The notes under the pieces: generated by a model
Database searches by the model: none
Told to the model about the DNA's origin: nothing
Seen by the model: only the letters and a program-made list of their open reading frames with translations
Assembly: GCA_003155695.1 (NCBI GenBank)
Contig: PMDZ01000008.1
Span: 39,362 to 103,361 of the forward strand
Origin: Candidatus Nomurabacteria bacterium
GTDB lineage: Bacteria > Patescibacteriota > Minisyncoccia > Phycocordibacterales > UBA9973
Direction: 5' to 3'
DNA length: 64,000 nucleotides
Position numbers and translations under genes: made by a program
Shown: positions 12,515 to 55,133 of the stretch, in pieces
Position numbering within the stretch: position 1 is the first letter of the stretch
How the letters are laid out: each line of letters begins with the position of its first letter

Positions 12515-12719
12515 AAGACAAATCTTGGACTTGCTTTATTTTCATGTGTATGTTATAGTTGACGAAGTAGTTAGCTTATGTTTTGGTAGTAGTTTCATTC
12601 TTCGTGTGTTAAACATTGAGGCATGTAAATGAAAATCGAGCTATGCGATTACATTTATTATTTAGTTTTCTTCGATTAGATGATATGAAAGTATCACTAT
12701 GAGAAGCACATTGTCATAT

Positions 12720-13004
12720 ATGGCAAAAAAGTTATATGTTGGTGGTCTTCCTTACAAGACTACAAACGATGAGCTTAAAGCTCATTTCAGTGCTGCAGGA
12801 GCGGTCGCTTCAGCAACAATTATCATGGATAAAATGACTGGCCGTTCTAAAGGCTTTGGTTTCGTAGAAATGGAAAACGATGCCGACGCAGCAACAGCTA
12901 TCTCAATGTTTGATGGTAAGGATTACGAAGGTCGTAATCTCACAGTAAACGAAGCTCGTCCTATGGAAGAGCGCCCACAAGGCGGTTTCCGAGGAAATAG
13001 ATAA
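12720..13004 (+). CDS. RRM-type RNA-binding protein
   Basis: RNP2 (LYVGGL) and RNP1 (KGFGFVEM) motifs with a Gly/Arg tail. The ATG at 12720 is preferred over 12699. Confidence 0.75.
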   Translation: MAKKLYVGGLPYKTTNDELKAHFSAAGAVASATIIMDKMTGRSKGFGFVEMENDADAATAISMFDGKDYEGRNLTVNEARPMEERPQGGFRGNR

Positions 13005-13020
13005 TTCAATTACTTTAACA

Positions 13021-13052
13021 AAAAATCCCCACTCGAAAGAGGGGGATTTTTT
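13021..13052 (+). terminator. terminator after RRM protein gene
   Basis: AAAAATCCCC-loop-GGGGGATTTTTT. Confidence 0.7.
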
Positions 13053-13108
13053 GTGTTGACATATACATATTTATGTTATAACATCATATTAAATTAAAAA
13101 TTATTGCC

Positions 13109-13465
13109 ATGAACGAAAAAATTGTTGAAGCTATCATTGCGTATATTCGCGAAGATATCGCAAACGTATCTAAGGATTATAAAATTATTATCGACGGAAA
13201 ACTATTTTATTTCGTAGAAGATGATTTCGATGATGATTTTATTTCTTTGGGTGAATTTATAAAAAAACACAACAAGCACCATCCTGGAAATAAAATTGAA
13301 GAAAATCCTAAAACTAAAGGAATATACTATGTTTTAACGAACTATTCTTCAGTTCGCATTCTTGATTCCAATCTTGTTTTAAATGGATTTGATAGTTTTT
13401 TCTTTGCAAAAAAATTTGTAACGGTTGGAGGAACCTATGAGATAAAGTTTAAGGAGACAAGCTAA
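13109..13465 (+). CDS. hypothetical protein
   Basis: 118 aa ORF with no recognised motif. A hairpin plus T-run terminator follows at ~13489-13523. Confidence 0.4.
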   Translation: MNEKIVEAIIAYIREDIANVSKDYKIIIDGKLFYFVEDDFDDDFISLGEFIKKHNKHHPGNKIEENPKTKGIYYVLTNYSSVRILDSNLVLNGFDSFFFAKKFVTVGGTYEIKFKETS

Positions 13466-36906: not shown

Positions 36907-36907
36907 A

Positions 36908-37384
36908 TTATTCTCTTAAATAAGTTCTAAAATTAAATGGCTTATCTCCGATAAGAAAATTTACCGAAACAGATGGGGGCCTACCGTTTGCACTGGCTGT
37001 ATATGAAAATTTAACATTCGAAACTGGATATCTGTCACTATTTAACTGTATCGGTACACCAACGCCACGAGCAATAGTCATAATAGTGCCATTGCCACTT
37101 ATGACAAGGGGACTCTGTGCACCTAAGTCCGTTCTGGTTATGGTAACCGTATCACCACTTGCGGAGACGGTCGCATCGGATGCGCCGGTAAGAGCCCAGT
37201 TGATTTTACGATTAAGGAAAATTCCTTCTTCTTGTATTCCGGCGGCTGCAACATTATGATTACTTCCTTCAACAAGATTATATGTTCCAACTACAGCTCC
37301 GGTCATAAGTAAGCCGAAAAGAGCAATGTATATCATCGTTTCCATCAATGTAAATCCTTGTTGATTTTTTATCTTTTTTATCAT
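36908..37384 (-). CDS. minor pilin / pseudopilin
   Basis: QGFTLMETMIYIALFGLL prepilin N-terminus. 158 aa. Confidence 0.6.
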   Translation of the reverse strand: MIKKIKNQQGFTLMETMIYIALFGLLMTGAVVGTYNLVEGSNHNVAAAGIQEEGIFLNRKINWALTGASDATVSASGDTVTITRTDLGAQSPLVISGNGTIMTIARGVGVPIQLNSDRYPVSNVKFSYTASANGRPPSVSVNFLIGDKPFNFRTYLRE

Positions 37385-38946
37385 GGTGTGTATATTACTC
37401 CCAACTTATCGGTTGTTAAGTCTTGGCTAATGGCATAAATCCAATCTCCATCTATATCAAATCCAAGAGGGGCTAAGTGGGGAAAACTATAACTTGTAAA
37501 ACGACCGACATTCAATGTTCCTGTCCAAGTAGAATAATCGGAATCCCAAACTTGAAATTCTTGTCCACTTTTGCTTGTTTCTATATATGCATATTTACCT
37601 GATACCTCAATATTTGTTATGCTGGCTCCGACTTCACCTTGTTCGGATTCAGGGGTTAAAGAACTTTCCGGGTTAGTAACATCAAATACATAAAGTTCTG
37701 GACCTCCGGTATTTGATTGACGCCCGAAATATAAATTATTACCCAAAAGAGAAAGACTAAGACCATCTTGACTACCAGGAAGGTCAACTGAATTAAGTTC
37801 CGTTATTGTATCTCCGGTCACATCTAAAATGCCGAGTTCTTTTAAGTCGGAATCAGCAGCAAGAAAAACTAATCTATGGGTAACACCGGAAATTTTTTGG
37901 TCGCGGACAATTATATCATTTACCGTACGGTCAAGTTTAAAACCATTTCCTATTTCGGTTGGAATGGTCGGCGTAGAAATATTGAAAATATGAAATTCGT
38001 TTCCCGAAGTATAGCGAGTTGTCATATATAAACGACCTCCATAAACAAACAAATGCCATCCTTGCGGAGATGAACCCAGAGGGTCAACATTTTGGAGGTC
38101 ACGTTGCGCAACAAGTGTTGGAGTACTTGGGTCTGTCACATCAATAACGGCAAGTTGTTTGGTTGTCGCATTTACGGCCACGAAAGCATAAGTTCTTCCG
38201 GTAGCCAAGTCTTCCTCAACGTCAACAGCATTTAATTTTACCGGAACCCCGAGAACTTTTACAATATCTGTCGGTGAACTAACCAGAACAGGATTTTGAC
38301 CTACCGCTTCCGGGATATCATATATGGAAAAATATGGACTTATATTACTTGTTGTATAAATCTTTTTATGAAGCACATCAATACCAGTAAATTGCTTCCC
38401 TGGAGCAAATGGTAATGACCCTATACTTTCCGGTGTATTATTCTCCCAATCGCCACTCGGTTGATTTAAAACACAATCACCCCCGCGGGCAATAATTTCC
38501 GGGGTATTCGTGAGGTAAGTGAAAAGTTTTGTTGTCGTTGTTGGATAACTGGCTACTTGCCATTCTACTTTGGCTTCCACATATTTTGAGCAAGAAGATA
38601 AATCAGTAATATTTTTTTGAACATAATAGCACAATCCGCCGGCTATACATGAAGCGTCAGCTGAGTCGGAAGGATCTTTTGACACAGTCAAAGGCGAAGA
38701 TACCGCTTGATAAAAATCTTGTTTTATAAGAGAACGTAAATCTTCAAGCGTAGTCTTTGCTTTATAAAGCGCTTCGTTGGCAGTTTGCGAGGTTATTCCC
38801 CAATATTGGGCCGAAAAATTCGCATTTACCGCTCCAACAAGAACAATACAAATAAGAGCAAAAGCAATCATCAGTTCAATTGTTGAAAATCCCGATGTTT
38901 GATAATTGTAAATTTTTTTATTTTTACCAACTAATTTTTCCTTCAT
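37381..38946 (-). CDS. large prepilin-like protein with LVIVD-repeat beta-propeller
   Basis: SGFSTIELMIAFAL prepilin signal. Repeated ..LAVIDVTDPS.., ..LYVFDVTNPES.., and ..LGILDVTGD.. segments are typical of LVIVD repeats. Confidence 0.55.
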   Translation of the reverse strand: MKEKLVGKNKKIYNYQTSGFSTIELMIAFALICIVLVGAVNANFSAQYWGITSQTANEALYKAKTTLEDLRSLIKQDFYQAVSSPLTVSKDPSDSADASCIAGGLCYYVQKNITDLSSCSKYVEAKVEWQVASYPTTTTKLFTYLTNTPEIIARGGDCVLNQPSGDWENNTPESIGSLPFAPGKQFTGIDVLHKKIYTTSNISPYFSIYDIPEAVGQNPVLVSSPTDIVKVLGVPVKLNAVDVEEDLATGRTYAFVAVNATTKQLAVIDVTDPSTPTLVAQRDLQNVDPLGSSPQGWHLFVYGGRLYMTTRYTSGNEFHIFNISTPTIPTEIGNGFKLDRTVNDIIVRDQKISGVTHRLVFLAADSDLKELGILDVTGDTITELNSVDLPGSQDGLSLSLLGNNLYFGRQSNTGGPELYVFDVTNPESSLTPESEQGEVGASITNIEVSGKYAYIETSKSGQEFQVWDSDYSTWTGTLNVGRFTSYSFPHLAPLGFDIDGDWIYAISQDLTTDKLGVIYTP

Positions 38947-39385
38947 GATTTATTGATATTACTGCTGTAATATTACGATTTGGGTCTATCATGGTTATAT
39001 CCGTATCCTCAGCATCGCCGCTTAATTGCTCGAAAGTAATTTCCGTCGGTGATGTTGGACTGAATGTCACTTCGTAGGAAGATTTCGTATCTTCATCTTT
39101 TGAGCTATCTCTCTCATCGTAAGAATTACCTTCAAAAATAACATATCCCTCATATCCCGCCGGATTGATAGCGACACCGTGTTGCTCTTGGTCTATATTA
39201 TTAAGAGCATCGGCTCGGGCAGTTTGGAGAGCAAGACCAAGATTATTTACTTCGGAACGGAAAGCATCTCCTCGGAAACTATTTATATCTATAAATAACG
39301 ACATCGTTGCGATTACACCGACAAGCCCGATGACAACCAGCATTTCCATTAACGTGAACCCTTTTTCTAATTCAACTTTTTTCAT
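38924..39385 (-). CDS. minor pilin / pseudopilin
   Basis: KGFTLMEMLVVIGLVGVIA prepilin N-terminus. The start is taken at the MKKVELEKGFTL ATG rather than the extended ORF. Confidence 0.6.
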   Translation of the reverse strand: MKKVELEKGFTLMEMLVVIGLVGVIATMSLFIDINSFRGDAFRSEVNNLGLALQTARADALNNIDQEQHGVAINPAGYEGYVIFEGNSYDERDSSKDEDTKSSYEVTFSPTSPTEITFEQLSGDAEDTDITMIDPNRNITAVISINHEGKISW

Positions 39386-39389
39386 CTTT

Positions 39390-40637
39390 TTATCCGTGTA
39401 AATTTTGAGTAATACTATAAATCGGTGTGATAATTGAAATAGCGATAAAGCCGACAAGGACACCCATGAAAATCATCAGCGCAGGTTCGATAAGATTCGA
39501 AATATTTTTTGTAAATTCTTCCACTTCGCTTTCGTAAAGTTCGGAAAGATAAATGAAAGAATTTGATAAGTTTCCGGAGCGTTCTCCGACTGAAATTATC
39601 TGAGTTAGGACTTCCGGGAAAAGGTTTCTATTTTTTGCAAGATAAACTGATATTCGTTCTCCTCGATTGACAGCTTCGGACATAGCTTCAAATTCTCTTT
39701 TGTATACTAGATTTCCTGATACTCTTGTTGTTATTTCTAGCGTTTCGCCGAAAGTCACACCACTTTTCAAAAGTAATCCAATCGTACGAGTAGTATTTGC
39801 CAAATTGTAATGTTTTATAACCTCTCCGATCATCGGAATTTTCATCAATAATTTATCGAAATAGAAGCGGAATATTTTAACTTTTTTTAATGTAAAAATA
39901 AAAACAAGAATGAAAATTACAATGCCGAGAACTAGTTCAAGTCCGTGATGAATCAAGAAATCACTGAAAGCCATAATTATCCTTGTTGAAAGGGGAAGAG
40001 TCATGTGCAAACTGGAAAAGACCGGTAAAATTTTTGGGAAAAGATAAACCATCAGGAATCCGGTAATTCCAAGAGTAGCAAAGGTGACAACAGCCGGATA
40101 AACAAAAGCACCTTTAACTTTTTTCTGTAAAGCGTTTTTCTTTTTTAATTCTTCGGCAAGATAGGTGAGATTATCGCTTAAAATTCCTGCAGATTCTCCG
40201 AAGGAAATAATATTTATTGAGAAATCACCAAATATTTTGTGAAATTTTCCAAGACTAGTGGACAGATTGTGCCCACTTGAAACATCATTAATAACCGTAT
40301 CCAAAATGGTAATGAGACCTTTCTGCCTGGTTTGTTCCCGAATCATCGTTAGACTTTCAAGTATTGGTATACCTGCTTTCAAGAGGAATGATAACCTTTT
40401 TATGAAAAAAGTCTGTTCTTTCAATGTCATTTTGAAGAAAGAGGAACTCTTAAAATTACTAAACATTTTCGAAAAAGATGAAGTGCTTTTTTTGGGAGAT
40501 TTTATATTTGATAATTCTTTATTTTTTTCAAATCTGTTTGTTGTATTATTGAAAAACAAAGTAGTGGATACTCCTCCTTTTTGAACGGAACTTTTCAAAG
40601 CGGAACTATTATTCTTTATGTATTTTTTTATTTCCAT
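39390..40637 (-). CDS. pilC: type IV pilus inner-membrane platform protein (GspF/PilC family)
   Basis: Two T2SSF-type repeats with 3-4 TM helices. 415 aa. Confidence 0.8.
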   Translation of the reverse strand: MEIKKYIKNNSSALKSSVQKGGVSTTLFFNNTTNRFEKNKELSNIKSPKKSTSSFSKMFSNFKSSSFFKMTLKEQTFFIKRLSFLLKAGIPILESLTMIREQTRQKGLITILDTVINDVSSGHNLSTSLGKFHKIFGDFSINIISFGESAGILSDNLTYLAEELKKKNALQKKVKGAFVYPAVVTFATLGITGFLMVYLFPKILPVFSSLHMTLPLSTRIIMAFSDFLIHHGLELVLGIVIFILVFIFTLKKVKIFRFYFDKLLMKIPMIGEVIKHYNLANTTRTIGLLLKSGVTFGETLEITTRVSGNLVYKREFEAMSEAVNRGERISVYLAKNRNLFPEVLTQIISVGERSGNLSNSFIYLSELYESEVEEFTKNISNLIEPALMIFMGVLVGFIAISIITPIYSITQNLHG

Positions 40638-40651
40638 ATTATTAAATATTA

Positions 40652-41875
40652 TTATTCGTGGATTACACGTAGAATTTCTTCTATTGTAGTGATACCTTCT
40701 TCGACTTTTTTAAAGCCATCTTCGAACATGGTAGTCATGCCCCGACTGACGGCTAAATTTTTAATTTCGCTTGCTGAAGCTTTCCTCAATATCGCTTCTC
40801 GGATAACTTCGTCAGCGACCAAAACTTCATTTATACATACTCGACCCGAGTATCCGGTATTGTTGCATTTGTCACAACCTTTACCTTTAAAATATACTTG
40901 GCCGTCATACATCAACTTTCCAATTAATGTATCTTGTAAACTTTCCTTAAGGGCTGGGGTCATCTTATGTTTTTCTTTACAATGTGAACAGATTTTTCGT
41001 ACCAAGCGTTGGCCAATAGCGATTGAGACTGTTGAAGCAACTAGATATTCCTCGACACCCATATCGAGCAAGCGTGGCAAGGTTGTAGCTGCATCGCTTG
41101 TATGCAGAGTTGAAAGGAGCAAATGCCCAGTAAGTGCTGTATTTACGGCAATATTTGCCGTTTCGGCATCACGAATTTCCCCGACCATAACAATGTTCGG
41201 GTCCTGCCTCAATATTGAACGTAGCCCATTAGCGAAAGTAAGCCCAGAATGGGAATTAACTTGTATTTGCTCAATATCGCCAATTGAATATTCTATCGGG
41301 TCTTCAATCGTAATTATCGAAACATCGGGATGATTCAACATTTTGATAAGAGTATAAAGAGTCGTAGTTTTCCCGGAACCGGTCGGCCCAGTAGCGAGAA
41401 TCATTCCGCTTGATTTTTTCATTGCAGCGATTATTTTTTTTGTATCACTATCACTAAAGCCTAAATTCTCCAAACTGAAATTTTCCGCTTTATCGGAAAG
41501 CAATCGCAAAACGGCATTCTCGCCGTGATATGTCGGAACAATAGAAACACGAAGGTCAATGAATTCATTCGTCACCGGAAAGATATATCGAAAGCGCCCG
41601 TCTTGCGTAGCTTGATGTTCATCGGTACGAAGTCTGGAGAGAATTTTTATTCTTGAAATTATTTCTCCATGGATATTTTTGGGGAGGGGATGAGAATCTT
41701 CAAGAACACCATCAATACGAAAACGCAAACGAACAGCTTTCTCTTGTGGGTCTAAGTGAATATCAGACGCATTTATTATAGACGCATGTTTTATAATCTC
41801 ATCAATTAAGTTAATAATTGAAAGATTTACTCCGTGAGCCAATTCTTTTTCTATAATCGCGTTAAATTCGTTCAT
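40652..41875 (-). CDS. pilB: type IV pilus assembly ATPase (GspE/PilB family, short form lacking N-terminal domains)
   Basis: Walker A GPTGSGKTT, Asp box, His box and the C-terminal tetracysteine C..C...C..C. Confidence 0.85.
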   Translation of the reverse strand: MNEFNAIIEKELAHGVNLSIINLIDEIIKHASIINASDIHLDPQEKAVRLRFRIDGVLEDSHPLPKNIHGEIISRIKILSRLRTDEHQATQDGRFRYIFPVTNEFIDLRVSIVPTYHGENAVLRLLSDKAENFSLENLGFSDSDTKKIIAAMKKSSGMILATGPTGSGKTTTLYTLIKMLNHPDVSIITIEDPIEYSIGDIEQIQVNSHSGLTFANGLRSILRQDPNIVMVGEIRDAETANIAVNTALTGHLLLSTLHTSDAATTLPRLLDMGVEEYLVASTVSIAIGQRLVRKICSHCKEKHKMTPALKESLQDTLIGKLMYDGQVYFKGKGCDKCNNTGYSGRVCINEVLVADEVIREAILRKASASEIKNLAVSRGMTTMFEDGFKKVEEGITTIEEILRVIHE

Positions 41876-42142: not shown

Positions 42143-44010
42143 ATGACGAAAAAATATATTATTACAATTTTGTTTTCTTTTATTTTTCTTTTAGGATTTT
42201 CTCATTTTATTTTTGCTAATACTCTACAGCATGGAAGTGATACAATTTATACAACACAAGCAGAAAATACTTTACCTAATGTTAATTCACCCGGAAATTT
42301 AGTTTTAAGCAATAATTATACCGACTGTGCTATTTTAGGAGATTGGTTACCAACTTGGTATGTTTGTGTTGCTAATGGTTTAACAGAATCAAATACTACT
42401 CAACCCGCAGGATTATTTTATGCTAGTCAAAGTGGAACTGAAATCATACAGGCAGAAATGGGACAATGGATGAATTTAAAATTTGTATATGCACCTACGC
42501 CAACCTGTGCAGATGGTATTCTATCAGGAAATCAGTGTATTACTCTGGTACAAACAGTTTGTGCTAACAATGAATCTATTCTTGATGGAAGCGGTATGTG
42601 CAATCTTGATGACAATCAGACCCCATCGGTTTGCCCAACTGATGATTATCCTCTATTAGATCTATTAGAATATAGTCAAACTCAGTGTGAAATAGTTTAT
42701 ACGCCGCCTACTTGTCCGAGTGGTTATACTTTAGATGGTAGTCAATGTTTAGTTGTAGATACAACTCCTCCATCAACTGATACCGATGGCGATGGTGTAT
42801 TAGATACAGTCGATAATTGTCCTGCTGTTGCTAACCCAGAGCAAACAGATACCGACGGTGACGGAATTGGTGATGCCTGTGAAGCACCTGATACAACTCC
42901 ACCCGTAATCACAGGTACATTTCGTCGACAAGATCCTTCCCCCTATGACTTTGCCAAAGTTGGTGACAGAGTTCGTGTTGACTTTGAATCAAACGAGCGT
43001 GTTTACCCACAAAGTTGGGAAATTGCCGGACACAGTATTCCTAGCTATACGCCCCAGAATGCGGAGGGTACACGTTTCTATATCTATTACGACATGCAAG
43101 CAAGCGATACTGAAGGTCCACTTACTTATTCAATGACTGCTCAAGATGATGCAGGAAAGTCAACAACGGTTACCGGCGGTGGCGTTACTTTTGATAAAAC
43201 TGCGCCGGCTGTTACAGTTCCTGATGATATAGTAGAAGCCACAAGTGGTTCTGGAGCCATACTTAATTATGTTGCTAGTGCAACAGATGTAAATCCTGCA
43301 ACCCCAGAAGTGACTTGTGTTCCTCCTTCAGGTTCAACTTTCCCATTAGGAACTACAGTTGTGACCTGTTCAGCTACAGATTCTGCTGGAAATACAGGAA
43401 CAGATACTTTCAATATTACAGTTAATGAATCAGTGGATACTATACCAACCGTAGAAGATACAACTAATCCAGTTATAACTCTACTTGGAGATAATCCTGT
43501 GACCGTGACTATTGGATATACCTATCTGGATGCTGGAGCTACAGCAACAGATGATGTTGACGATGATATAACTCTAAATATTGAAGTAGGTGGCTCGGTA
43601 GATACTACAACTGTCGGTACTTATACAATTACTTACGATGTAATTGATGCTGCCGGTAATAAAGCTAACCAAGTAACTAGAACAGTGAATGTAATTCAAG
43701 CTCATAAACATAGTAGTGGTTCTTCAGGTGGTAGTATTCCTAGAATTTCTAGTAGCGGAACTGTTATAACCGGCGGGCAAGTTCTCGGTGCTGAACATTT
43801 TAACTTCACACTATTACTCAAGATGGGTTCAATGGCAATGAAGTTATGGAACTTCAAAAGTTCCTAAACAATGCAGGATATGGAATTTTAGCAGTTGATG
43901 GAATCTTTGGGCCAAAAACCAAAGCCGCAGTTATCAAATTCCAAATTGCCAGTGGACTAGCAGGGGATGGAATAGTTGGACCTCTGACACGGGCAGTTTT
44001 AAATAAATAG
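42143..44010 (+). pseudogene. secreted TSP3-repeat / HYR / DUF5011 (Ig-like) protein with C-terminal PG-binding repeats, interrupted by a frameshift near 43820
   Basis: Signal peptide. TSP type-3 Ca-binding repeats DTDGDGVLDTVDNCPAVANPEQTDTDGDGIGDAC. An HYR-like block (..VTCVPPSGSTFPLGTTVVTCSATDSAGN..). A DUF5011-like block (..LDAGATATDDVDDDITL..GTYTITYDVIDAAGN..). The ORF-track frame stops at 43867, and a PG_binding_1 pair (GYGILAVDGIFGPKTKAAVIKFQ..GDGIVGPLTRAVL) continues in the adjacent frame to 44010. A hairpin plus T-run terminator lies at ~44024-44056. Confidence 0.5.
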
Positions 44011-44256: not shown

Positions 44257-45939
44257 ATGACCCAAGAACAAGCGTTTCAAATTATGAAAACCGGAGTGAA
44301 TATTTATCTGACTGGCAGTGCCGGAAGCGGTAAAACTTATCTCCTCAATAAATATATTTCGTATCTACAAAGTCACGACATTCCCGTGGCAGTCACGGCT
44401 TCGACCGGTATTGCCGCCACCCATATGAACGGCATGACCATACACTCTTGGAGTGGAATCGGAATTAAAAATTTTCTTGGTGAAAAAGAATTGGAACAGC
44501 TGGAGGATAAGAAATATCTTTGGAAGAGGTTTGAAAAAGCTCGCGTTTTAATTATTGATGAAGTTTCAATGCTCCACGGCAGCCAGCTTGAAATGGTGGA
44601 GAAAGTCTGCCGGAGATTCAAAAGAAACGATAAGTCATTTGGTGGATTGCAAGTTATTCTATCCGGTGATTTTTTCCAATTGCCACCGATAAGCAAAATT
44701 AATGAGGAGAATGAAAGTGGAATGGTTTTCGCCAGCAAGTCATGGCAAATATTGAATCCGGCAATTTGCTATATCGAGGAACAGCATCGCCAAGAAGACG
44801 ACACGCTTTTGGAAATCCTAAACACAATCCGCTCGGGTGAAATGCAAGAGAAACATTATGAACTTCTAAGAAGTCGTATCGGTGCCAAGCTGAAGAGCGA
44901 CGCAAAAGCAACCAAACTTTACACTCACAATATAAATGTCGACGATATAAATAATATTGAACTTTCTCTTATCAATAATGAAGAAAGAATTTCCATTATG
45001 ACTTCGACTGGTCCGGAACCACTTGTGGAGATATTGAAAAAGAGTTGCCTGGCTCATGAAAAATTAAAACTGAAAGTCGGTGCCGAAATAATGTGTATTA
45101 AGAATAATTTTGAAAATGGCTATGTGAATGGCTCTCGAGGTAAGATTATCGGGTTTGAAAAGGAAGGTGGAAACCCGATTATAGAGCTTTATAATGGCCG
45201 TAAAATAAGCCTAAAACCGGAAATATGGGCTATTGAAGAGGATGGGAAAGTTAAGGCCTCGGTTTCGCAAATACCGCTTCGCCTGGCTTGGGCAATCACC
45301 ATTCACAAAAGCCAAGGAATGTCGCTTGATAATGCCGAGATAGACCTGACAAAAAGTTTTTCTTATGGCATGGGTTATGTCGCTCTTTCAAGAGTCAGAA
45401 CTTTGGAAGGGATAAGCTTAGTTGGATTTAATGCTGAGGCACTTCGAGTTGACCCGAAAGTTTTGGAATTCGACCAAGATTTGAAGAATCAAAGTTTTCA
45501 GAATGAACTATTATTTAAGAAATTAAAAAATGATGAACAGAAAAAACTGGAGGAAGATTTTATTTTGAAGCTGGGAGGAACAATAATATCGGGAAATAAA
45601 AAAATTAAGAACAAGAGAATTGTAGAAACGAAAGTCCCGACAATTTTAATTACCAAAGAATTGCTCGATAAAGGTTATTCGGTAAAGGAAATCGCCAAAG
45701 AAAGGAATCTGACACAAGGGACGATAACTCACCACATAGAAGAAATCGTTTCGCAATATCCGGAGACAAATATCGTGCATATTCGTCCACAGCAAAAGCA
45801 TATCGACTTGGTCAAAACGATAAATAAAAAACTGAAAGGAGATGAAATAGGCAGATTAAACCCAATCAAATTAATACTTGAAAAAGAAGGATATAAAATG
45901 AGTTTCGAAGAAATTCGAATCGCAAAATTATTTATCTAA
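44257..45939 (+). CDS. Pif1/RecD-like AAA ATPase DNA helicase with C-terminal HTH
   Basis: Walker A GSAGSGKTY and Walker B LIIDEVSM, followed by Pif1-like motifs. 560 aa. Confidence 0.7.
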   Translation: MTQEQAFQIMKTGVNIYLTGSAGSGKTYLLNKYISYLQSHDIPVAVTASTGIAATHMNGMTIHSWSGIGIKNFLGEKELEQLEDKKYLWKRFEKARVLIIDEVSMLHGSQLEMVEKVCRRFKRNDKSFGGLQVILSGDFFQLPPISKINEENESGMVFASKSWQILNPAICYIEEQHRQEDDTLLEILNTIRSGEMQEKHYELLRSRIGAKLKSDAKATKLYTHNINVDDINNIELSLINNEERISIMTSTGPEPLVEILKKSCLAHEKLKLKVGAEIMCIKNNFENGYVNGSRGKIIGFEKEGGNPIIELYNGRKISLKPEIWAIEEDGKVKASVSQIPLRLAWAITIHKSQGMSLDNAEIDLTKSFSYGMGYVALSRVRTLEGISLVGFNAEALRVDPKVLEFDQDLKNQSFQNELLFKKLKNDEQKKLEEDFILKLGGTIISGNKKIKNKRIVETKVPTILITKELLDKGYSVKEIAKERNLTQGTITHHIEEIVSQYPETNIVHIRPQQKHIDLVKTINKKLKGDEIGRLNPIKLILEKEGYKMSFEEIRIAKLFI

Positions 45940-47290: not shown

Positions 47291-48589
47291 ATGAAAAAAT
47301 ATAGCCTAGTTGTTGTATTATCTATATGTCTTCTCGTTATTGCCACTCTATATATTTATATGTCCGGAATACAAAAAAGGGATATTACGAATATAAATCA
47401 GGATTTGCAAGCTTCTTCCCGTAATTTCATTAATAGCAGTCCCGGAACTTTTTCCATAAAAAGTATATCCGCCAAATGTGTTGCCAATCTCCCTCAAGTC
47501 AGTCTTACATGGTCACAATCAATCAAAGCAAGTTCATATCTTGTAGAACGAATGTATCCGGGAGCAAAAAGCTGGGAAATTACCGGTGAGACATCGAACT
47601 TATTTTTCACCGACACGACGTATGAACCGGGCTACGATCTCGGTTATTTTACTTACCGAGTCCAAGCCTATAATGCAAACGGTTTAAGTTATTCAAAATC
47701 ACAAAAAATAAATATATTCAAATGTCCATCCGTAGTACCGGCAATAACTGCAACGGGGAATACAAACTCTATTCCTCCTGTTGTGACAACCTCAAAAAAT
47801 ACGTTGCAATGGGGAGCGTATGTCGGTGATGAAACAAATGATCTTGCTAATTTTGAATCATTAGTAGGAAAAAAAGTTAATCTATATGCCGATTTTGAAG
47901 GATGGAATGATACTTTTCCTTCCTCTTTATCGACAAAGGTTGGAGCCCAAGGTAAAACATTGGTAATATTCTGGGAGCCGGATTTTGGCTATGATACTAT
48001 AAATAATGGTAGTAAAGATACATATATAAAACAGTTCGCAACCGGCGCAAAATCTTATGGCTATCCGATAATCCTGGCACCTTTCGATGAGATGAATCTA
48101 AACGAGGAAGCATGGGGTTATGAGGTGAACAATAATACGGCTCTCAAATTTAGAACAGCCTGGCAACATATACACGATCTTTTTGTTTCAGTGTCAACAA
48201 CAAATGTAAAATTTGCTATCACCTACAATAATGTATCGATTCCAGACGTTGCGGGAAATGAAATGAGCGATTATTATCCCGGAGATACATATGTCGATTA
48301 TGTCGGCATAGACGGTTTCAATTTTGCCGATCCATGGCAAACATTTGCTCAAATTTTTGATACGACAATCGCTCAAGTTTCAAAATTCAATAAACCGATA
48401 TATATTCTCTCGATGGCATCGGAAGCCGGAGCACAAAAAGCAAGTTGGATTACCGACGGACTTGGGGGAACGATAAAAAATTATACGAATGTTCTTGGAT
48501 GGATTTGGTTTAACGAAGGTGGTCAACCAAATTGGATTGTGAACTCGGATAGCGCGTCTCTTTCCGCTTTTAAATCAATAATTCCGTAA
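47291..48589 (+). CDS. secreted FN3-domain glycoside hydrolase (GH26-like, clan GH-A)
   Basis: Signal peptide. FN3-like block (..LTWSQS..SYLVER..). The catalytic-region look-alikes are ILAPFDEMNLNEEAWGY (GH26 HEMN-type acid/base) and KPIYILSMASEAG (nucleophile region). Confidence 0.55.
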   Translation: MKKYSLVVVLSICLLVIATLYIYMSGIQKRDITNINQDLQASSRNFINSSPGTFSIKSISAKCVANLPQVSLTWSQSIKASSYLVERMYPGAKSWEITGETSNLFFTDTTYEPGYDLGYFTYRVQAYNANGLSYSKSQKINIFKCPSVVPAITATGNTNSIPPVVTTSKNTLQWGAYVGDETNDLANFESLVGKKVNLYADFEGWNDTFPSSLSTKVGAQGKTLVIFWEPDFGYDTINNGSKDTYIKQFATGAKSYGYPIILAPFDEMNLNEEAWGYEVNNNTALKFRTAWQHIHDLFVSVSTTNVKFAITYNNVSIPDVAGNEMSDYYPGDTYVDYVGIDGFNFADPWQTFAQIFDTTIAQVSKFNKPIYILSMASEAGAQKASWITDGLGGTIKNYTNVLGWIWFNEGGQPNWIVNSDSASLSAFKSIIP

Positions 48590-48725
48590 AAATATAGATA
48601 AATACTATAAAATAGTTTCTAAAATGCCTATTTAAGTAGGGGGTATTTCTATTTGACAAAAGGTTTAGAATATGCATAATTGAGGGACCAATACAAAAAA
48701 TTTATCAATTAATTACCAATATACC

Positions 48726-49754
48726 GTGAAGATATCACTTCTAGTCCCATGCTATAACGAAGAAAAATCCCTCGAGGCATCGATAAAATCATGCCTTAAT
48801 CAAACTCGCAAGTTTGATGAGTTGGTGTTTATTGACGATTCTTCAACAGATAAGACTCCGCAAATCCTCGCAAGTTTTGGGGATAAAATTATTACACATC
48901 GTGTACCAAAGAATACCGGTAATAAATCGAGAGCTCAAGAATTCGGATTTCAGTTCGTCACCGGCGATTTTGTAGTTACCACCGATGCCGATACGCTTCT
49001 CAAACCGAACTTTGTCGAAGAAATAGAAAAGAGTTTTCAAGACCCGAAAGTCGTTGCTGTCGCCGGTGTCGTGAAAAGTTTGCCGTATAATTGGCTCACA
49101 CTTTGCCGAGCATTCGATTATGTTGTCGGACAATATATTCACAAACTCGCCCAAAGCCACATGAATTTTATTTTCGTCATGCCCGGAGCGGCAAGCGCAT
49201 TTCGTGTCGAAACATTCCGTAAATACATTACCTTTGACCACGATACGATTACCGAGGACTTGGATTTCACCTACAAGATTCACCGCAATCAATTCAAGAT
49301 TGTTTACAATCAACAGGCAATTTCTTATACACAAGACCCGACAAACCTGAAAAATTATATCAACCAATTACGACGTTGGTTTGGTGGCGGTTGGCAAAAT
49401 GTAATTAAACATTACTCAATCATCGTAACAAAACCGATTCGTGCATTTGAGCTTTCGGTTATTTACGCCGAAGGACTGATTTTTTCCGTTCTTATATTTA
49501 TAATACCGTTTCTTAATCTTTGGTTTGCTTTTTGGTTTGTCTTCGGTTATTTTACGATAGCTTTTGTTTTTGCTGTTTGGGCAGCATGGAAAGAGAAGAG
49601 ATGGGCTCTCATTTTAGTGCCGTTCCCATATATTTTTATCATGTTTGTCAATGCCTATGTTTATCTTGAACAGTTTGTAAAAGAAGTCATTTTCAGAAAG
49701 AAAAATCTTGTGTGGTTCAAACCGGATCGAGTTACAATTACCAAAACATCATAA
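48726..49754 (+). CDS. processive family-2 glycosyltransferase (PgaC/IcaA/cellulose-synthase-like polysaccharide synthase)
   Basis: GTG start. Motifs: LLVPCYNEE, the D,D,D triad (FIDDSSTD; DADT) and Q-L-R-R-W. C-terminal TM helices are present. Confidence 0.75.
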   Translation: MKISLLVPCYNEEKSLEASIKSCLNQTRKFDELVFIDDSSTDKTPQILASFGDKIITHRVPKNTGNKSRAQEFGFQFVTGDFVVTTDADTLLKPNFVEEIEKSFQDPKVVAVAGVVKSLPYNWLTLCRAFDYVVGQYIHKLAQSHMNFIFVMPGAASAFRVETFRKYITFDHDTITEDLDFTYKIHRNQFKIVYNQQAISYTQDPTNLKNYINQLRRWFGGGWQNVIKHYSIIVTKPIRAFELSVIYAEGLIFSVLIFIIPFLNLWFAFWFVFGYFTIAFVFAVWAAWKEKRWALILVPFPYIFIMFVNAYVYLEQFVKEVIFRKKNLVWFKPDRVTITKTS

Positions 49755-49761
49755 TAATATT

Positions 49762-50229
49762 ATGCCTTTCACCCCATTTATTGGTATATCGGTAATAGTT
49801 CACATTTGTGTTATCTTCGGATGTTGGCTTTTCTCCTGGATACCGACAAAGGAAAAAATAGCTCAGGGCACAACATATGTCGGTTATGCCGTAAACTCCG
49901 GTATTATTGTTGCCGTCTTTATGCTAATTTTTATTCAAGCAGGTTTTCTTGTACACGCAAGCATCGTCGACAAACACTCTTCCGTAAAATTCTTCGCCAG
50001 CTCCATAACGCAAATTAAAAAAATTAAAATTCCGGAATTATTGAATATAGTTATTGCATCAACAAATGTTTCAAGCGGGACACAATTGTCCGATAATCCT
50101 ATGGCTGATTTATTGATAAAAAATCGAACAGACAATCCTTTTATATATCAAGTCGAACCCGTTAATAATTTTAATGATTATACATATATACAGTCGAAAT
50201 TGAATGATATATCAAAAACTTTTCAATAA
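49762..50229 (+). CDS. hypothetical membrane protein
   Basis: Two TM helices. The start is taken at the MPFTPFIG ATG, just after the GT2 stop. Confidence 0.4.
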   Translation: MPFTPFIGISVIVHICVIFGCWLFSWIPTKEKIAQGTTYVGYAVNSGIIVAVFMLIFIQAGFLVHASIVDKHSSVKFFASSITQIKKIKIPELLNIVIASTNVSSGTQLSDNPMADLLIKNRTDNPFIYQVEPVNNFNDYTYIQSKLNDISKTFQ

Positions 50230-50365: not shown

Positions 50366-52753
50366 ATGAAAAATTATACAAAACCGGTGTTTGTGAAAGT
50401 AGGAATGTTTATTGTTGTTATGTCACTTTTTATTGGTTCATCAGCTGTATCGGCTGCTGTCAATGTCGTTCCGAATGCTAATCTTGAGACCCAATCAAGT
50501 GGTAACCAAAATATTCCTGACCAATGGGAAAAGGGAACCAGCGACTTAGGTGACGTTGTTACTTACACATACCCAGTAACTAGTGCTCCAGTATCCGATA
50601 TTTCAAGTGGTAATGCCGCAAAAATTGAAGCTACTTCTTTTACTTCAGATAAGGGCGCAAAATGGTATTTCACTCCGGTTCCTGTAACTCCTGGTGAGCG
50701 ATATTCTTTCAGCGATTCATATATTGCTACATCCAATACTGATTTAGTTGGAGTTTTCTGTACAGATATTTATCAAAATAATTGTACTTATGATACAACT
50801 CATTCTGTATCTGCAACACCAACTGATACATGGGAACAAGCAACCGCTTCTTTTACGGTACCGATAGGTAAAACATATATGACGGTGTTTCATCGTATTC
50901 AAGTAGCTGGTTCACTAACTATTGATAATTATAATTTAACACTCATACCTCCACCATCTCCATTTGCATCCGGATTCGTAACACTTACTTTTGATGACGG
51001 ACTATTGTCACAATTTAATAATGCTCTATCTGTACTAAATGCCGGAAATGCAAAAGCAACTTTCTTCATTCCAACCCATTTTATTTCTGGTTTTTCTATT
51101 GTTAATCCTTCGTTTGAAAATGCGCCTGGAGGTAATCCAATTGATTGGACTCAATCGGGGGGAACATCTTCTTCAACATTTACTCTTTCTTCTGATTCTC
51201 ATAATGGTGGTGCTTGGGCAGGACAAGTCAGTGATACTGTGACTACTTTAAGTAATGCTGCTTGGTCTTTCACTCCGGTAACTGTTATTCCTGATACTAT
51301 TTATTCTTTTAAAGAATATTATAAGAGTACAGCAAATTCAGAACTCGTTGCGAAAGTAACTTTAGACGATAACTCTACTACAATAACTGCTGACGTTGTG
51401 GATAGTGGTGGCGCAACTTTAGGTATTAGCGTACCGCTTCCTGCATCTGCTGATTACACTCAAACTCAAGCATATTTCTATATGCCTACTAATGCTAAAT
51501 CAGTCACAATATTAAATAAATTAACTAGCGCTGGAACTCTTACTATCGACGATGTGTCACTTGGCAGAGAAGGATATATGACGAGTGACCAAGTGCTATC
51601 ACTTCAATCAGCAGGAAATGAAATCGGTGGCCATACACAAACACACCCAGACCTCACAACAGTTACACCAACAGATCTGACAAATGAAATTAGTGGTGGT
51701 CGCCAGGACCTTATTAGTAATGGCATAACTGCTCCAGTATCGTTTGCGTATCCATTTGGCGCATACAATACAACAATTCAAGACGCTCTCACAAGTGCAG
51801 GTTACACATCTGGTCGTACCGTTTTGCCATCTGGATTTAATGATTTATCTACTCCAAAACTGTCTCTCTTCTCTCAATCAATAGATGCAAATACTACACT
51901 AGATCAAGTAGCTAACTGGATTGCTGAAGCCAAAGCAAATAAGAGCTGGTTGATTTTAACATTCCATGATATACAAAATGATATTACAGGAACTCCATAT
52001 GGAACGACACCACAAATCCTTGCTGGAATTATTTCAGACGTAACATCAGAAGGTCTTCCTATAAAAACTGTTAGCGAGGGAGTTGAATTAATGGGTAATG
52101 TAACTCCACCAACTGACCCAGTTTGTACGCTTCCTCAAGTATTAGAGAATCATGTATGTGTTACTCCAGTAGTTACTGACCCAGTTTGTACACTTCCTCA
52201 AGTATTAGAGAATCATGTATGTATCACGCCGACAAGATGCGCATACAATTCGGACCTGTTAGCAAGCGACCCACTCTGTGTTGCTCCGGCAATGTGTCAA
52301 TACAATTCTAACTTGTTAGCGAGCGATAAAGATTGTGTAGCTCCGAAAACACCAACGCATCATATATCGTCAGGTTCTATTCCGATGTCTACCCAAGGTA
52401 GTGTTCTCGGCGCCAAGACTTCTTGTGGAATTTATATAGATAAGTTTTTAGGAATGGGACTTAAGGATAATGATGTGGAAGCTGTTGAAAAAATTCAAAC
52501 TTTCTTAAATGACAATATGTCTGCAGGACTTGTTGTTGATGGATTTTTTGGTGCTATGACCAATGATGCACTTAAAGCCTTCCAGCTTGCGCATGCAGAC
52601 AAAGTCTTGGAACCTTGGGGTCTGACTGCTCCAACCGGCATATTCTACTTAACCACTCAAACGGCAGTGAATAATATAATGTGTCCGGCCTTAGATTTGC
52701 CAATCCCAGTACTCACTCCGATAGCTCTAAATCCATTGTTTCCCAAAAAATAG
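50366..52753 (+). CDS. secreted CE4 (NodB) polysaccharide deacetylase with N-terminal CBM-like domain, a second CBM-like domain inserted into the catalytic domain, and a C-terminal PG-binding module
   Basis: NodB motifs are TFDDG; H-T-Q-T-H; AYPFG; L-T-F-H-D. About 215 aa separate motif 1 from motif 2. The C-terminal 130 aa are paralogous to the ends of the 22797 and 25084 proteins. Confidence 0.7.
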   Translation: MKNYTKPVFVKVGMFIVVMSLFIGSSAVSAAVNVVPNANLETQSSGNQNIPDQWEKGTSDLGDVVTYTYPVTSAPVSDISSGNAAKIEATSFTSDKGAKWYFTPVPVTPGERYSFSDSYIATSNTDLVGVFCTDIYQNNCTYDTTHSVSATPTDTWEQATASFTVPIGKTYMTVFHRIQVAGSLTIDNYNLTLIPPPSPFASGFVTLTFDDGLLSQFNNALSVLNAGNAKATFFIPTHFISGFSIVNPSFENAPGGNPIDWTQSGGTSSSTFTLSSDSHNGGAWAGQVSDTVTTLSNAAWSFTPVTVIPDTIYSFKEYYKSTANSELVAKVTLDDNSTTITADVVDSGGATLGISVPLPASADYTQTQAYFYMPTNAKSVTILNKLTSAGTLTIDDVSLGREGYMTSDQVLSLQSAGNEIGGHTQTHPDLTTVTPTDLTNEISGGRQDLISNGITAPVSFAYPFGAYNTTIQDALTSAGYTSGRTVLPSGFNDLSTPKLSLFSQSIDANTTLDQVANWIAEAKANKSWLILTFHDIQNDITGTPYGTTPQILAGIISDVTSEGLPIKTVSEGVELMGNVTPPTDPVCTLPQVLENHVCVTPVVTDPVCTLPQVLENHVCITPTRCAYNSDLLASDPLCVAPAMCQYNSNLLASDKDCVAPKTPTHHISSGSIPMSTQGSVLGAKTSCGIYIDKFLGMGLKDNDVEAVEKIQTFLNDNMSAGLVVDGFFGAMTNDALKAFQLAHADKVLEPWGLTAPTGIFYLTTQTAVNNIMCPALDLPIPVLTPIALNPLFPKK

Positions 52754-52802: not shown

Positions 52803-55133
52803 ATGAAAAATCATATGAAATTGATTCCAATAAAACTAGGAATGTTGGTTGCTTTAATGGCGTTTTTGGTCGGCCCATCAAAAATATTCGCTTTAAGTTC
52901 CAGCAACCTTGTTCCAAACCCTCTTCTTGAAACTCCGTCGTCGGGTGATCCAAATATTCCCGACCAATGGGCAAAGGGGTATATTGACGCTAGCGATGTT
53001 GTTACTTACACATATCCAGTAACTAGTGCTCCCACATCCGATATATCTAGTGGTAATGCCGCAAAGATTGTCGCCACTACCGTTGTCTCCGGTACCGATG
53101 CCAAATGGTATTTTACTCCGGTTCCCGTAACTCCAGGCCAGCGATATGTTTTCAGTGATTCATATATATCCACAGTTGGTACGGATTTGGTTGCGTCATT
53201 CTGTACCGATATATTTCAAAATGGTTGCAGCTATGATACTTCTCAATCCATACCGGCAACACCAACCGATGTGTGGAAACAATCTTCGGCTTCATTTACG
53301 GTACCGATAGGCAAAACATATATGACGGTATTTCACCGCATACAAACAGCTGGTTCACTAACTATTGATAATTCTAGTTTGATACTCGTTCCACCACCAT
53401 CTCCATTTTCATTTGGATTTGTAACACTTACCTTTGATGACGGACTATTATCACAATTTACCAATGCCTTACCTGTCTTAGTTGCCGGAAGCGCAAAAGG
53501 AACTTTCTTTATTCCGACTCACTTTATTTCCGGTTTTTCTATTATTAATCCATCGTTTGAAAATGCAAATGGTATTAATCCAACCAACTGGTCTCATTCC
53601 GGTTCTTTAACTGCGACATACACATATTCTTCGGACGCCCATAACGGCACAAAGAGCGGACAAGTTGCTTCAACAACAGCTCTTAGTAATGCAGCCTGGT
53701 CTTTCGCACCGGTAACTATTATTCCCGATACTATTTATTCTTTCCAGGAATACTACAAGAGTACGGCAAGTTCGGAACTTGTTGCGAAAATGACTTTGAA
53801 TGACGGTACAACAATAAATGCCGATGTTGTGGATAGTGTGGGCAATACATTAGATAATAAAGTAACACTGCCTGCTGCCTCAAGCTATACTTCAACTCAA
53901 GCATATTTTTATATGCCACTTAACGCAAAATCAGTGACAATATTAAATCAGTTGACCGGTATCGGTACTTTAACTATTGACGATGTAACTCTGGGCAGAG
54001 AAGGGTATATGACCAGTAATCAAGTATCAACACTTCAAACCAAAGGAAATGAAATTGGCGGTCATACACAAACTCATCCAGATCTTACAACACTTACAAG
54101 TACCGATATGACGAATGAAATAAATGGTGGACGCCAGGATCTTCAGAGCAATGGTATAACTCCGGTTCTTTCATTCGCATATCCATTCGGTGCATATAAT
54201 ACAGCTATTCAGCAAGCACTCACAAATGCAGGTTATTCATCTGGTCGTACCGTTTTGCCATCCGGATTTAATGATTTATCTACTCCAAAATTATCCCTTT
54301 TCTCTCAAACAATAGATGCCAATACAACACTCGGTCAAGCGGAAAATTGGGTTGCTGAGGCAAAAGCAAACAAGAGTTGGTTGATTTTGACTTTCCATGA
54401 TATACAGAGCGACCTCACCAATCTTCCGTATGGAACAACACCAAAAAATCTTACGGATATTATTTCCTATATAAATACCGAGGGTATGCCGATAAAGACT
54501 ATCAGTGAGGGTGTTGCGTTGATGGGGGGGACACCGACTCCAACAGATGTCTGCCCGAACGTAACTGGTATGCAAACAACAGGTCCTTGCGCCGATACAC
54601 TCTGTGTGGCACCAAAAACCTGGAGTATATTAACTCAAACTTGTGTTGCTCCAGCTCCAGTTGATGTCTGCCCGAACGTAACCGGAGTTCAAACAACAGG
54701 TCCTTGCGCTGACACTCTTTGTGTGGCACCAAAAACTTGGAATATGACAACTCAAACTTGTGTTGCTCCAGCTCCAGTTGATGTCTGTCCGAATGTAACA
54801 GGAGTTCAAACAAAAAGTCCTTGCGCTGACACTCTTTGTGTATCACCAAAAACTTGGAATATAACAACTCAAACTTGTGTTGCTCCGGTTGATGTCTGTC
54901 CGAATGTAAGAGGAATACAGACAAAAGGTCCTTGCGCTGACACTCTTTGTGTGGCACCAAAAACTTGGAGAATATTAACTCAAACTTGTATTGCACCGGC
55001 TTCGGCGGATATTTGTCCCAAGGTAAAAGGAGTTCAAACAACAGGTCCTTGTGCCGATACTCTTTGTGTGGCACCAAAAACTTGGAGTATATTAACTCAA
55101 ACCTGTATCAAGTGGATATTTAGCTCAAAGTAA
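52803..55133 (+). CDS. paralogous CBM/CE4 deacetylase with C-terminal 5x tandem 39-aa Cys repeats (no PG-binding module)
   Basis: The N-terminal ~560 aa are collinear with the 50366 product, with the same NodB motifs. The C-terminus is DVCPNVTGVQTTGPCADTLCVAPKTW..TQTCVAPAPV repeated five times. Confidence 0.7.
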   Translation: MKNHMKLIPIKLGMLVALMAFLVGPSKIFALSSSNLVPNPLLETPSSGDPNIPDQWAKGYIDASDVVTYTYPVTSAPTSDISSGNAAKIVATTVVSGTDAKWYFTPVPVTPGQRYVFSDSYISTVGTDLVASFCTDIFQNGCSYDTSQSIPATPTDVWKQSSASFTVPIGKTYMTVFHRIQTAGSLTIDNSSLILVPPPSPFSFGFVTLTFDDGLLSQFTNALPVLVAGSAKGTFFIPTHFISGFSIINPSFENANGINPTNWSHSGSLTATYTYSSDAHNGTKSGQVASTTALSNAAWSFAPVTIIPDTIYSFQEYYKSTASSELVAKMTLNDGTTINADVVDSVGNTLDNKVTLPAASSYTSTQAYFYMPLNAKSVTILNQLTGIGTLTIDDVTLGREGYMTSNQVSTLQTKGNEIGGHTQTHPDLTTLTSTDMTNEINGGRQDLQSNGITPVLSFAYPFGAYNTAIQQALTNAGYSSGRTVLPSGFNDLSTPKLSLFSQTIDANTTLGQAENWVAEAKANKSWLILTFHDIQSDLTNLPYGTTPKNLTDIISYINTEGMPIKTISEGVALMGGTPTPTDVCPNVTGMQTTGPCADTLCVAPKTWSILTQTCVAPAPVDVCPNVTGVQTTGPCADTLCVAPKTWNMTTQTCVAPAPVDVCPNVTGVQTKSPCADTLCVSPKTWNITTQTCVAPVDVCPNVRGIQTKGPCADTLCVAPKTWRILTQTCIAPASADICPKVKGVQTTGPCADTLCVAPKTWSILTQTCIKWIFSSK

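Follow-up and report, generated by a model that had tools for sequence, protein, structure and literature searches.

The stretch of DNA analysed here, 64,000 nucleotides of the Candidatus Nomurabacteria contig PMDZ01000008.1 (assembly GCA_003155695.1; below, the window), encodes two neighbouring paralogs, Q1 and Q2, in which the catalytic NodB barrel of a predicted carbohydrate esterase family 4 (CE4) deacetylase is interrupted by a whole domain resembling a carbohydrate-binding module (CBM). Our favoured reading is that both proteins are active deacetylases, that the inserted module shapes the substrate cleft, and that they act on the polymer of a neighbouring synthase; taken as a whole, we regard this reading as reasonably probable. 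The two open reading frames (ORFs) lie in tandem, that of Q2 beginning fifty bases 3′ of that of Q1. Both products score well above the gathering score of 23.1 for the Polysacc_deac_1 profile (PF01522), at 74.8 bits (E 7.5e-21) for Q1 and 69.8 bits for Q2, and each does so in two separate stretches. In Q1 the second stretch spans residues 406-481, corresponding to profile positions 47-122 of 124, and a match to CBM_4_9 at residues 245-373 sits between the two. A preliminary description of this DNA had pointed to an unusually wide separation of NodB motifs 1 and 2 in both paralogs, and this is indeed what we find: TFDDG and HTQTH are 215 residues apart in Q1 (208 to 423) and 211 residues apart in Q2 (210 to 421), as against 55-60 residues in the unsplit relatives recovered by the same homolog search. 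The remaining motifs, AYPFG (461-465) and LTFHD (531-535), follow in their normal places in Q1, as had been described.

Alignment to solved CE4 enzymes places the interruption precisely. Residues 70-104 of the PplD chain (6dq3) align with Q1 residues 203-237 and residues 109-196 with Q1 residues 399-486, so that approximately 160 residues of Q1 stand for a connection of 4-5 residues, and the alignments to 7y51 and 7fbw show the same clean gap. The NodB domain is thus complete on both sides of the insert. Motif 1 is located upstream and motifs 2-5 downstream of a segment that is homologous to free-standing modules, which is the arrangement expected of a domain insertion. Furthermore, comparison of the insert with the N-terminal domain of Q1 by BLASTP gave 33% identity over 102 residues (E 1e-13), in keeping with the resemblance noted in the preliminary description, and by this homology the insert (about 156 residues) is a diverged copy of the N-terminal CBM-like module. 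The split layout is far beyond what chance would produce, since both paralogs keep it, as do about 20 homolog clusters and no fewer than 63 additional representatives at 50% identity.

To characterize the insert as a structure we used two AlphaFold2 (AF2) models, the first of Q1 residues 28-590 with an alignment of 21 split homologs and the second of residues 197-590 with 44 sequences. The first reached a mean predicted local distance difference test score (pLDDT) of 88.9 and a predicted template modelling score (pTM) of 0.73, with the insert modelled as all-beta at a pLDDT of about 90-96. The second reached 93.7 and 0.90, respectively, with the barrel above 90 on both sides of the insert; its secondary structure proceeds through beta1-alpha1-beta2, then approximately 13 strands, and then alpha2-beta3 onward. 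For a chain of two domains, a pTM of this height implies that the orientation of the insert relative to the barrel is also predicted with confidence. When the models were compared with the PDB using Foldseek, the CBM matches included CBM4-2 (2y64, 1k42), CBM16 (2zey, 2zew), CBM22 (4xuo) and CBM61, with a probability of 1.0 and target TM-scores of 0.60-0.77 that place the insert in the beta-sandwich class, and CBM11 was matched as well; the match to the porphyran-binding CBM 8xmz had a target TM-score of 0.77. Similarly, the tandem CBM22 pair of Xyn10C (4xup, E 3e-14) covers the N-terminal sandwich and the insert together. The top match of the two-domain model is 8qpg, the turret head protein of the Haloferax virus HFTV1. 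For both models the best 50 matches contained CBMs and this virus protein, in which a CBM and a CE4 domain stand in tandem, but no plain CE4 chain, probably because the barrel is split by a 156-residue gap; the comparison with CE4 enzymes given above is based on sequence alignments to solved enzymes. The independent beta-sandwich that had been proposed for the insert is therefore borne out by the predicted structure. The competing idea that the insert is a loop extension of the CE4 fold was rejected, as it folds as an independent sandwich and is homologous to the N-terminal module.

The catalytic residues on either side of the insert are retained. Among 21 split sequences (34-75% identity to Q1) residues F209, D210, D211, H423, H427, Y462, P463, G465, R484, W528 and H534 are invariant. 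These encompass the TFDD of motif 1, with D210 as the presumed catalytic Asp and D211 as the metal Asp; the two His of motif 2, H(S/T)xxH, which complete an Asp-His-His triad (D211/H423/H427); and the LxH of motif 5, with H534 as the presumed catalytic His. Two motifs deviate from the canonical pattern. At motif 3 (RxPY) the Tyr-Pro-x-Gly of AYPFG is kept without the Arg, and where motif 4 (DxxD(W/Y)) would be expected the strand reads SGRTV and contains the invariant R484. The active enzymes PplD, PgaB and IcaB share these deviations, their first Asp being held by an Arg located elsewhere (PMC8807736); by analogy, R484 likely replaces the canonical motif 3 Arg in holding the first Asp of Q1. 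When Q1 and Q2 are compared, the ratio of nonsynonymous to synonymous substitution rates (dN/dS) is lowest in the second barrel piece (CE4b, 0.12) and the first (0.13), followed by the insert (0.17), and highest in the N-terminal module (0.22). Purifying selection acts on the insert, which is no less constrained than the other parts of the protein. The preliminary description had allowed that an incomplete metal site would make these proteins pseudo-enzymes, yet with D211, H423 and H427 as well as D210 and H534 invariant they do not look like pseudo-enzymes.

The split architecture recurs well outside this window. A search of 5.8 billion clustered proteins returned 122 relatives, of which about 20 are split (motif spacing 209-216) and a few contain shorter inserts (spacing 158-173), while most others are unsplit proteins of the form [CBM]n-CE4, in which an uninterrupted barrel is preceded by 1-7 copies of the same CBM-like module. 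Our scan of GTDB species representatives revealed 78 loci, about 17 of them split and almost all from Patescibacteria, including Saccharibacteria, Paceibacterota, Adlerbacteria, Nomurabacteria, Lloydbacteria and Parcubacteria. A few loci lie on short contigs titled as other organisms, namely Gammaproteobacteria (L005, L078), Chlamydiae and Verrucomicrobiia; mis-binning seems likely for the split locus L005, given the otherwise patescibacterial distribution and a shared glycoside hydrolase family 26 (GH26) neighbour. A phmmer search of 1.84 billion representatives at 50% identity gave 17,737 matches at E <= 1e-3 and 508 at E <= 1e-30, and the best 150 matches contain at least 63 new representatives, together with about 9 known earlier, that have a motif spacing of 193-227. 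On this count the predicted split family comprises at least 70 clusters at 50% identity, mostly from Patescibacteria.

When the two barrel pieces (CE4a+CE4b) were concatenated for a neighbour-joining tree, all split proteins fell into one clade, and two nearly unsplit proteins were nested within it (L038 and P0073, with inserts of 60 and 22 residues, respectively), which suggests a single origin of the split unit followed by occasional trimming. Inserts are also shortened in P0008 and L005 (about 104 residues), in P0048, P0051 and P0053 (about 120 residues), and in L014 and L023 (about 142 residues); P0008 and L005 carry, in addition, a second, uninterrupted CE4 domain. As to how the unit arose, phmmer scores do not separate two possible origins, one in which beta1-alpha1-beta2 moved upstream of the last CBM in a [CBM][CBM][CE4] ancestor, and another in which a duplicated CBM was inserted into the barrel. 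In P0014-P0016 the split unit is N-terminal with more CBM copies downstream, a layout in which the nested unit behaves as one module. Giant multi-domain surface proteins carry a split CE4 unit near the C-terminus, for example P0121 (2547 residues), P0222 (2854 residues) and P0130, P0153 and P0185 (more than 2000 residues each), and the ORF at 5664-13418 of locus L010 likewise holds one near its C-terminus. Judged from such layouts, the nested CBM-in-CE4 unit is shuffled between proteins as a single module.

The point of insertion bears directly on what the domain might do. The insert directly follows strand beta2 (KATFFIPTH), the sandwich runs from FSIVNPSFE to LTIDDVSLG, and helix alpha2 (YMTSDQVLSLQ) starts four residues past the sandwich end; the flanking linkers, as read from the sequence, comprise about 4-6 residues on each side. 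In the chitin oligosaccharide deacetylase of Vibrio cholerae (VcCDA) the metal is bound by Asp40, His97 and His101. Its Loop 1 starts at Asn65, 25 residues past the metal Asp and between motifs 1 and 2, and in the subsite-capping model Loops 1, 2 and 6 define the minus (non-reducing-end) subsites (PMC5855634). The position in Q1 equivalent to the start of Loop 1 is residue 236 (D211 + 25), and since the insert starts nearby, at about 241-245, the sandwich appears to occupy the place of Loop 1 at the active-site face. The sandwich would then line or extend the substrate cleft, and it may lie right above the active site, as the preliminary description suggested; both placements rest on the Loop 1 position, the short linkers and the pTM of 0.90. 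With the two domains predicted to form a single rigid body, the sandwich is most likely a wall or an extension of the cleft in the place of Loop 1.

The surrounding genes suggest which substrate this cleft may receive. A GH26-like hydrolase, a synthase-like member of glycosyltransferase family 2 (GT2) and a small protein with two hydrophobic helices precede Q1 (Table 1). The closest solved relative of the GH26-like protein is the C. thermocellum lichenase CelH Lic26A (E 6e-38), and the small protein (49762-50229) had no family match in profile searches. The association of GT2 and deacetylase is repeated elsewhere: a GT2 gene at 50-75% identity adjoins the deacetylase in ten loci (L001-L004, L010, L012, L021, L023, L031 and L041), followed in L010, L023 and L041 by the small two-helix protein, and GT2 genes at 25-31% identity adjoin many unsplit relatives. 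Synteny is identical in an ENA metagenome strain that is 97% identical, the exact Q1 protein itself not being on record. Exopolysaccharide systems such as pgaABCD, icaADBC and the holdfast Hfs system rely on the joint action of a synthase, its small membrane partner, a deacetylase and a hydrolase. Of all families PgaC_IcaA fits the GT2 protein best, though at only 118.5 bits (cut-off 422.3), and the deacetylase likewise remains below the equivalog cut-offs for HfsH (NF050820; 81 bits against 400, the model covering Q1 residues 392-574), PgaB (TIGR03938; 21 against 322) and PgdA (16 against 800). Since none of these thresholds is reached, the likeness to the pga, ica and Hfs systems is one of analogy and not of membership, and the cluster at 47291-50229 together with the deacetylases suggests an uncharacterised exopolysaccharide system.

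According to the favoured reading, Q1 and Q2 would be secreted, metal-dependent CE4 deacetylases tethered to the wall or surface. The neighbouring PgaC/IcaA-like GT2 and its small membrane partner would extrude a polymer, which Q1 and Q2 would deacetylate and the GH26-like hydrolase would trim. The insert would serve as a wall or extension on the minus side that keeps the chain aligned with the zinc site, and it may influence both processivity and which residues are deacetylated, while the N-terminal CBM-like copy would provide ordinary tethering. The chemistry would follow the PgaB/IcaB/PplD variant, without the motif 3 Arg and the motif 4 Asp and with R484 contributed from another strand. 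A more far-reaching version of this proposal is that synthase, two-helix partner, GH26-like trimmer and nested CBM-CE4 enzymes form an undescribed, Patescibacteria-specific system whose product is a partially deacetylated cationic adhesin by which these ultra-small epibionts attach to a host or surface, with the sandwich at Loop 1 guiding the chain and making the enzyme processive or setting its pattern; we offer this as speculation that is unlikely to hold.

Several results weigh against the favoured reading. The inserts of Q1 and Q2 score 21.5 and 22.6 bits, respectively, and so do not reach the CBM_4_9 gathering score of 25.9, and a PDB sequence search with the insert alone gave no significant match to any solved chain, CBMs included; the insert is therefore a distant member of the beta-sandwich class and does not belong to a defined CBM family. 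Subclades with inserts of 104-142 residues imply that the full sandwich is not indispensable, and the CE4a+CE4b tree is a neighbour-joining tree without support values. With regard to the identity of the polymer, the GT2 score is low (118 against 422 bits), the hydrolase is nearest to a beta-1,3-1,4-glucanase, and the solved relatives of the deacetylases include acetylxylan esterases. Finally, in the best-studied analogue, the glycoside hydrolase family 10 (GH10) enzyme Pm25/Xyn10C, the product profile was almost identical with and without the inserted CBM4s (PMC7848910), which argues that a CBM placed inside a barrel can work separately from catalysis.

The Pm25 deletion also speaks for an alternative in which the insert is an autonomous tether that binds a glycan or the cell surface and is encoded inside the barrel without shaping the cleft, a role that has been proposed for the CBM4s of Xyn10C/Pm25 and for CBM58 of SusG. 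Consistent with such a role, CBM58 of SusG, as far as it is cited in PMC7848910, makes no hydrogen bonds with its catalytic domain, and the same CBM-like module occurs in the ordinary tandem arrays of the unsplit relatives. However, the linkers are very short, at about 4-6 residues on each side, the pTM of the two-domain model argues for a fixed orientation, and the insertion is located at Loop 1, which lines the minus subsites. In addition, the N-terminal copy is already there for plain tethering. We consider the autonomous tether possible, though rather less probable than even chances would have it.

The neighbouring hydrolase raises the further alternative that Q1 and Q2 are O-acetyl esterases of a degradative locus, working with the GH26-like enzyme on acetylxylan, mannan or beta-glucan. 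The CBM4/16/22/11 fold class typically binds xylan, beta-glucan or mannan, the hydrolase is closest to Lic26A, and among the solved relatives of the deacetylases are 2cc0, an acetylxylan esterase, and 7ax7, a CE4 enzyme associated with a xylanase. Against this alternative, a membrane GT2 with a QxxRW-type motif and its two-helix partner lie between the hydrolase and the deacetylases and are kept across loci. Nor is the hydrolase out of place beside a synthase: hydrolases are standard in exopolysaccharide synthesis operons, for example BcsZ, the C-terminal domain of PgaB, PelA and PslG. Moreover, the best family-level matches of the deacetylases are HfsH and PplD, both of which are N-deacetylases, and we therefore think O-acetyl esterase activity unlikely.

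Still more doubtful is the proposal that Q1 and Q2 resemble PgdA and deacetylate peptidoglycan, either in the cell's own wall or in that of a host bacterium. Patescibacteria are often epibionts, many CE4 members act on peptidoglycan, and PG_binding_1 is found in Q1 and in several homologs, but this domain may be an anchor only, and it is missing from Q2 and from many homologs. Matches to the PgdA equivalog models reach only 13-16 bits, where the cut-offs are 400-800, and the synthase conserved beside the deacetylases suggests a dedicated polymer. As for a pseudo-enzyme or an annotation or assembly artefact, in which the interrupted barrel no longer folds or catalyses, the missing motif 3 Arg and motif 4 Asp could be taken as a sign of it, but active PgaB, IcaB and PplD deviate likewise (PMC8807736), and we rejected it as largely refuted and highly improbable in view of the invariant metal triad, D210, R484 and H534, a dN/dS of 0.12-0.17 and a pLDDT above 90 for the barrel both before and after the insert, the layout being shared by both paralogs and at least 70 clusters.

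Comparison with described enzymes helps to delimit what is new in the favoured architecture. BoPDA of Bacteroides ovatus is, like Q1 and Q2, a CE4 enzyme in which a non-modular insertion pairs a NodB domain with a CBM-type beta-sandwich, and it is likewise encoded in a polysaccharide biosynthesis locus (PMC11713874). Its nesting is reversed, however, with the CE4 domain inside the sandwich, whereas Q1 has a contiguous sandwich (245-400) within an interrupted CE4 domain. BoPDA, a Bacteroides lipoprotein, also has a His-Asp dyad in place of the intact Asp-His-His triad of Q1 and Q2, and its authors call its architecture unique to that enzyme (PMC11713874). Domain insertions have precedents outside CE4 as well, namely the CBM4s of GH10 Xyn10C/Pm25, CBM58 of SusG and the ancillary domain of CE20. 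In Xyn10C/Pm25 the CBM4 inserts are located between beta3 and alpha3, so that, as in Q1, the sandwich emerges at the C-terminal end of a barrel strand, and the insertion is similarly clade-wide, conserved and recognised by an abnormally long distance between catalytic motifs (PMC7848910). Xyn10C differs in being a glycoside hydrolase with two tandem CBMs instead of one, and in belonging to Bacteroidota polysaccharide-utilisation loci and not standing beside a synthase.

Among CE4 enzymes, PplD (6DQ3) is the best solved sequence relative, and its R302, like R484 in Q1, presumably holds the first Asp (PMC8807736). PgaB and IcaB act on the polymer of a neighbouring GT2 synthase, as we propose for Q1 and Q2, but none of these three enzymes has a domain inside the barrel, and PplD is circularly permuted with its catalytic His N-terminal, whereas Q1 keeps the canonical motif order from 1 to 5. 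In VcCDA the minus subsites are shaped by an enlarged Loop 1 (PMC5855634), which lies between motifs 1 and 2 at the position of the insertion in Q1, but there it is a long loop, compared with a whole domain of about 156 residues that is predicted to fold independently. The HFTV1 turret head protein gp31 (8QPG) contains a galactose-binding-like domain followed by a polysaccharide deacetylase domain, arranged in series (bioRxiv 10.1101/2024.12.09.627619). Similarly, the unsplit patescibacterial [CBM]n-CE4 proteins combine the same CBM family and CE4 subfamily in series, with a motif spacing of 55-60, and are not nested. A 2024 survey of NodB architectures described added secondary-structure elements such as a beta-hairpin and no inserted domain (PMC10967932). 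Our full-text literature searches, which had incomplete coverage and are thus a weak negative, found no CBM nested within a NodB domain and only the reverse case of BoPDA, and a literature search on deacetylases of Patescibacteria found nothing relevant. The preliminary description had called a domain inside a NodB fold unusual, which holds for the literature searched but not for nature, where a large patescibacterial family has this arrangement. The enzyme family, the module class and the mechanism of domain insertion are therefore all known, while their combination and the position of the insert were not found in the literature searched.

CE4 enzymes set the acetylation pattern of chitin, poly-N-acetylglucosamine, peptidoglycan and hemicelluloses, and the subsite-capping model credits their specificity to the loops around the active site. 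A natural and widespread replacement of Loop 1 by a domain of a glycan-binding type would thus allow the limits of remodelling the cleft to be tested, and might provide a template for engineering deacetylases with defined patterns or processivity. The analysis also flags a conserved cluster of synthase, hydrolase and deacetylase genes in Patescibacteria, in which surface polymers and attachment are almost unknown. In practical terms, a check of motif spacing can recognise nested CE4 domains in proteins that pipelines now label simply as "polysaccharide deacetylase family protein".

Table 1. Split deacetylase genes Q1 and Q2 and the genes preceding them, in window coordinates
Feature	Coordinates	Strand	Basis
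GH26-like glycoside hydrolase with N-terminal anchor	47291..48589	+	Pfam GH26, 24.6 bits; adjacent in 12 related loci
GT2 synthase-like glycosyltransferase, QLRRW motif, C-terminal membrane helices	48726..49754	+	Pfam GT2 families
Small protein with two hydrophobic helices, between GT2 and deacetylases	49762..50229	+	ORF; 155 residues in the 97%-identical strain
Q1, predicted secreted CBM-CE4 deacetylase with split NodB domain, 795 residues	50366..52753	+	ORF; PF01522 in two stretches, 74.8 bits
Q1 residues 1-31, putative hydrophobic N-terminal signal peptide or anchor	50366..50458	+	Read from the sequence, MKNYTKPVFVKVGMFIVVMSLFIGSSAVSAA
Q1 residues 32-196, N-terminal CBM-like beta-sandwich	50459..50953	+	AF2 all-beta, pLDDT 82-96; homology to insert; 4xup match
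Q1 residues 197-244, first NodB barrel piece beta1-alpha1-beta2, TFDDG 208-212 (D210, D211)	50954..51097	+	CE4 structure alignments; pLDDT 94-98
Q1 residues 245-400, inserted CBM4/9/16/22-like beta-sandwich	51098..51565	+	CBM_4_9, E 3e-4 (below gathering score); AF2 all-beta, pLDDT 88-98; Foldseek
Q1 residues 401-575, remaining NodB barrel: HTQTH 423-427, AYPFG 461-465, R484, LTFHD 531-535	51566..52090	+	Pfam; HfsH model; invariant residues
Q1 residues 576-704, Cys-containing short repeats and linker	52091..52477	+	Read from the sequence: PVCTLPQVLENHVC x2, C.YNS.LLASD..CVAP x2
Q1 residues 705-743, PG_binding_1	52478..52594	+	PF01471, 25.4 bits against cut-off 23
Q2, paralogous split CBM-CE4 deacetylase, 776 residues	52803..55133	+	ORF; PF01522 in two stretches; TFDDG 210, HTQTH 421
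Q2 residues 247-398, inserted CBM-like domain	53541..53996	+	CBM_4_9 at 247-371; phmmer CBMi 247-398, E 3e-61
Q2 C-terminal tandem repeats, 117 bp x 4.8, Cys-rich units of 39 residues	54546..55106	+	Tandem Repeats Finder

The C-terminal parts of both deacetylases contain repeats, which in Q1 are followed by the terminal PG_binding_1 domain. The 117-bp units at the C-terminus of Q2 have 86% matches and encode the repeat VDVCPNVTGVQTTGPCADTLCVAPKTW..TQTCVAPAP, for which no convincing family match was found, the sole match being a weak, Dickkopf-like one (E 0.037). P0001, which is 97% identical to Q1, is 21 residues longer (816 as compared to 795 residues) and shows an additional PVCTLPQVLENH-type repeat in its alignment row, which suggests that the repeat copy number upstream of PG_binding_1 varies between strains. 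Promoter and terminator scans gave counts near the shuffled expectation and were not used as evidence.

Elsewhere in the window, the minus strand at 32878-41875 encodes genes like those of type IV pili and type II secretion, including a T2SSE ATPase, a T2SSF platform protein and a prepilin with an N_methyl motif, which adjoin a 1342-residue protein with a SpaA-like prealbumin fold and an LVIVD-repeat protein; together they form a surface-appendage cluster typical of Patescibacteria. On the plus strand, a 574-residue surface protein with TSP_3, HYR and Ig-like domains (42143-43867) is followed by a PIF1-family helicase with a C-terminal helix-turn-helix domain (44257-45939), and HYR and Ig-like domains are also present in several of the deacetylase homologs.

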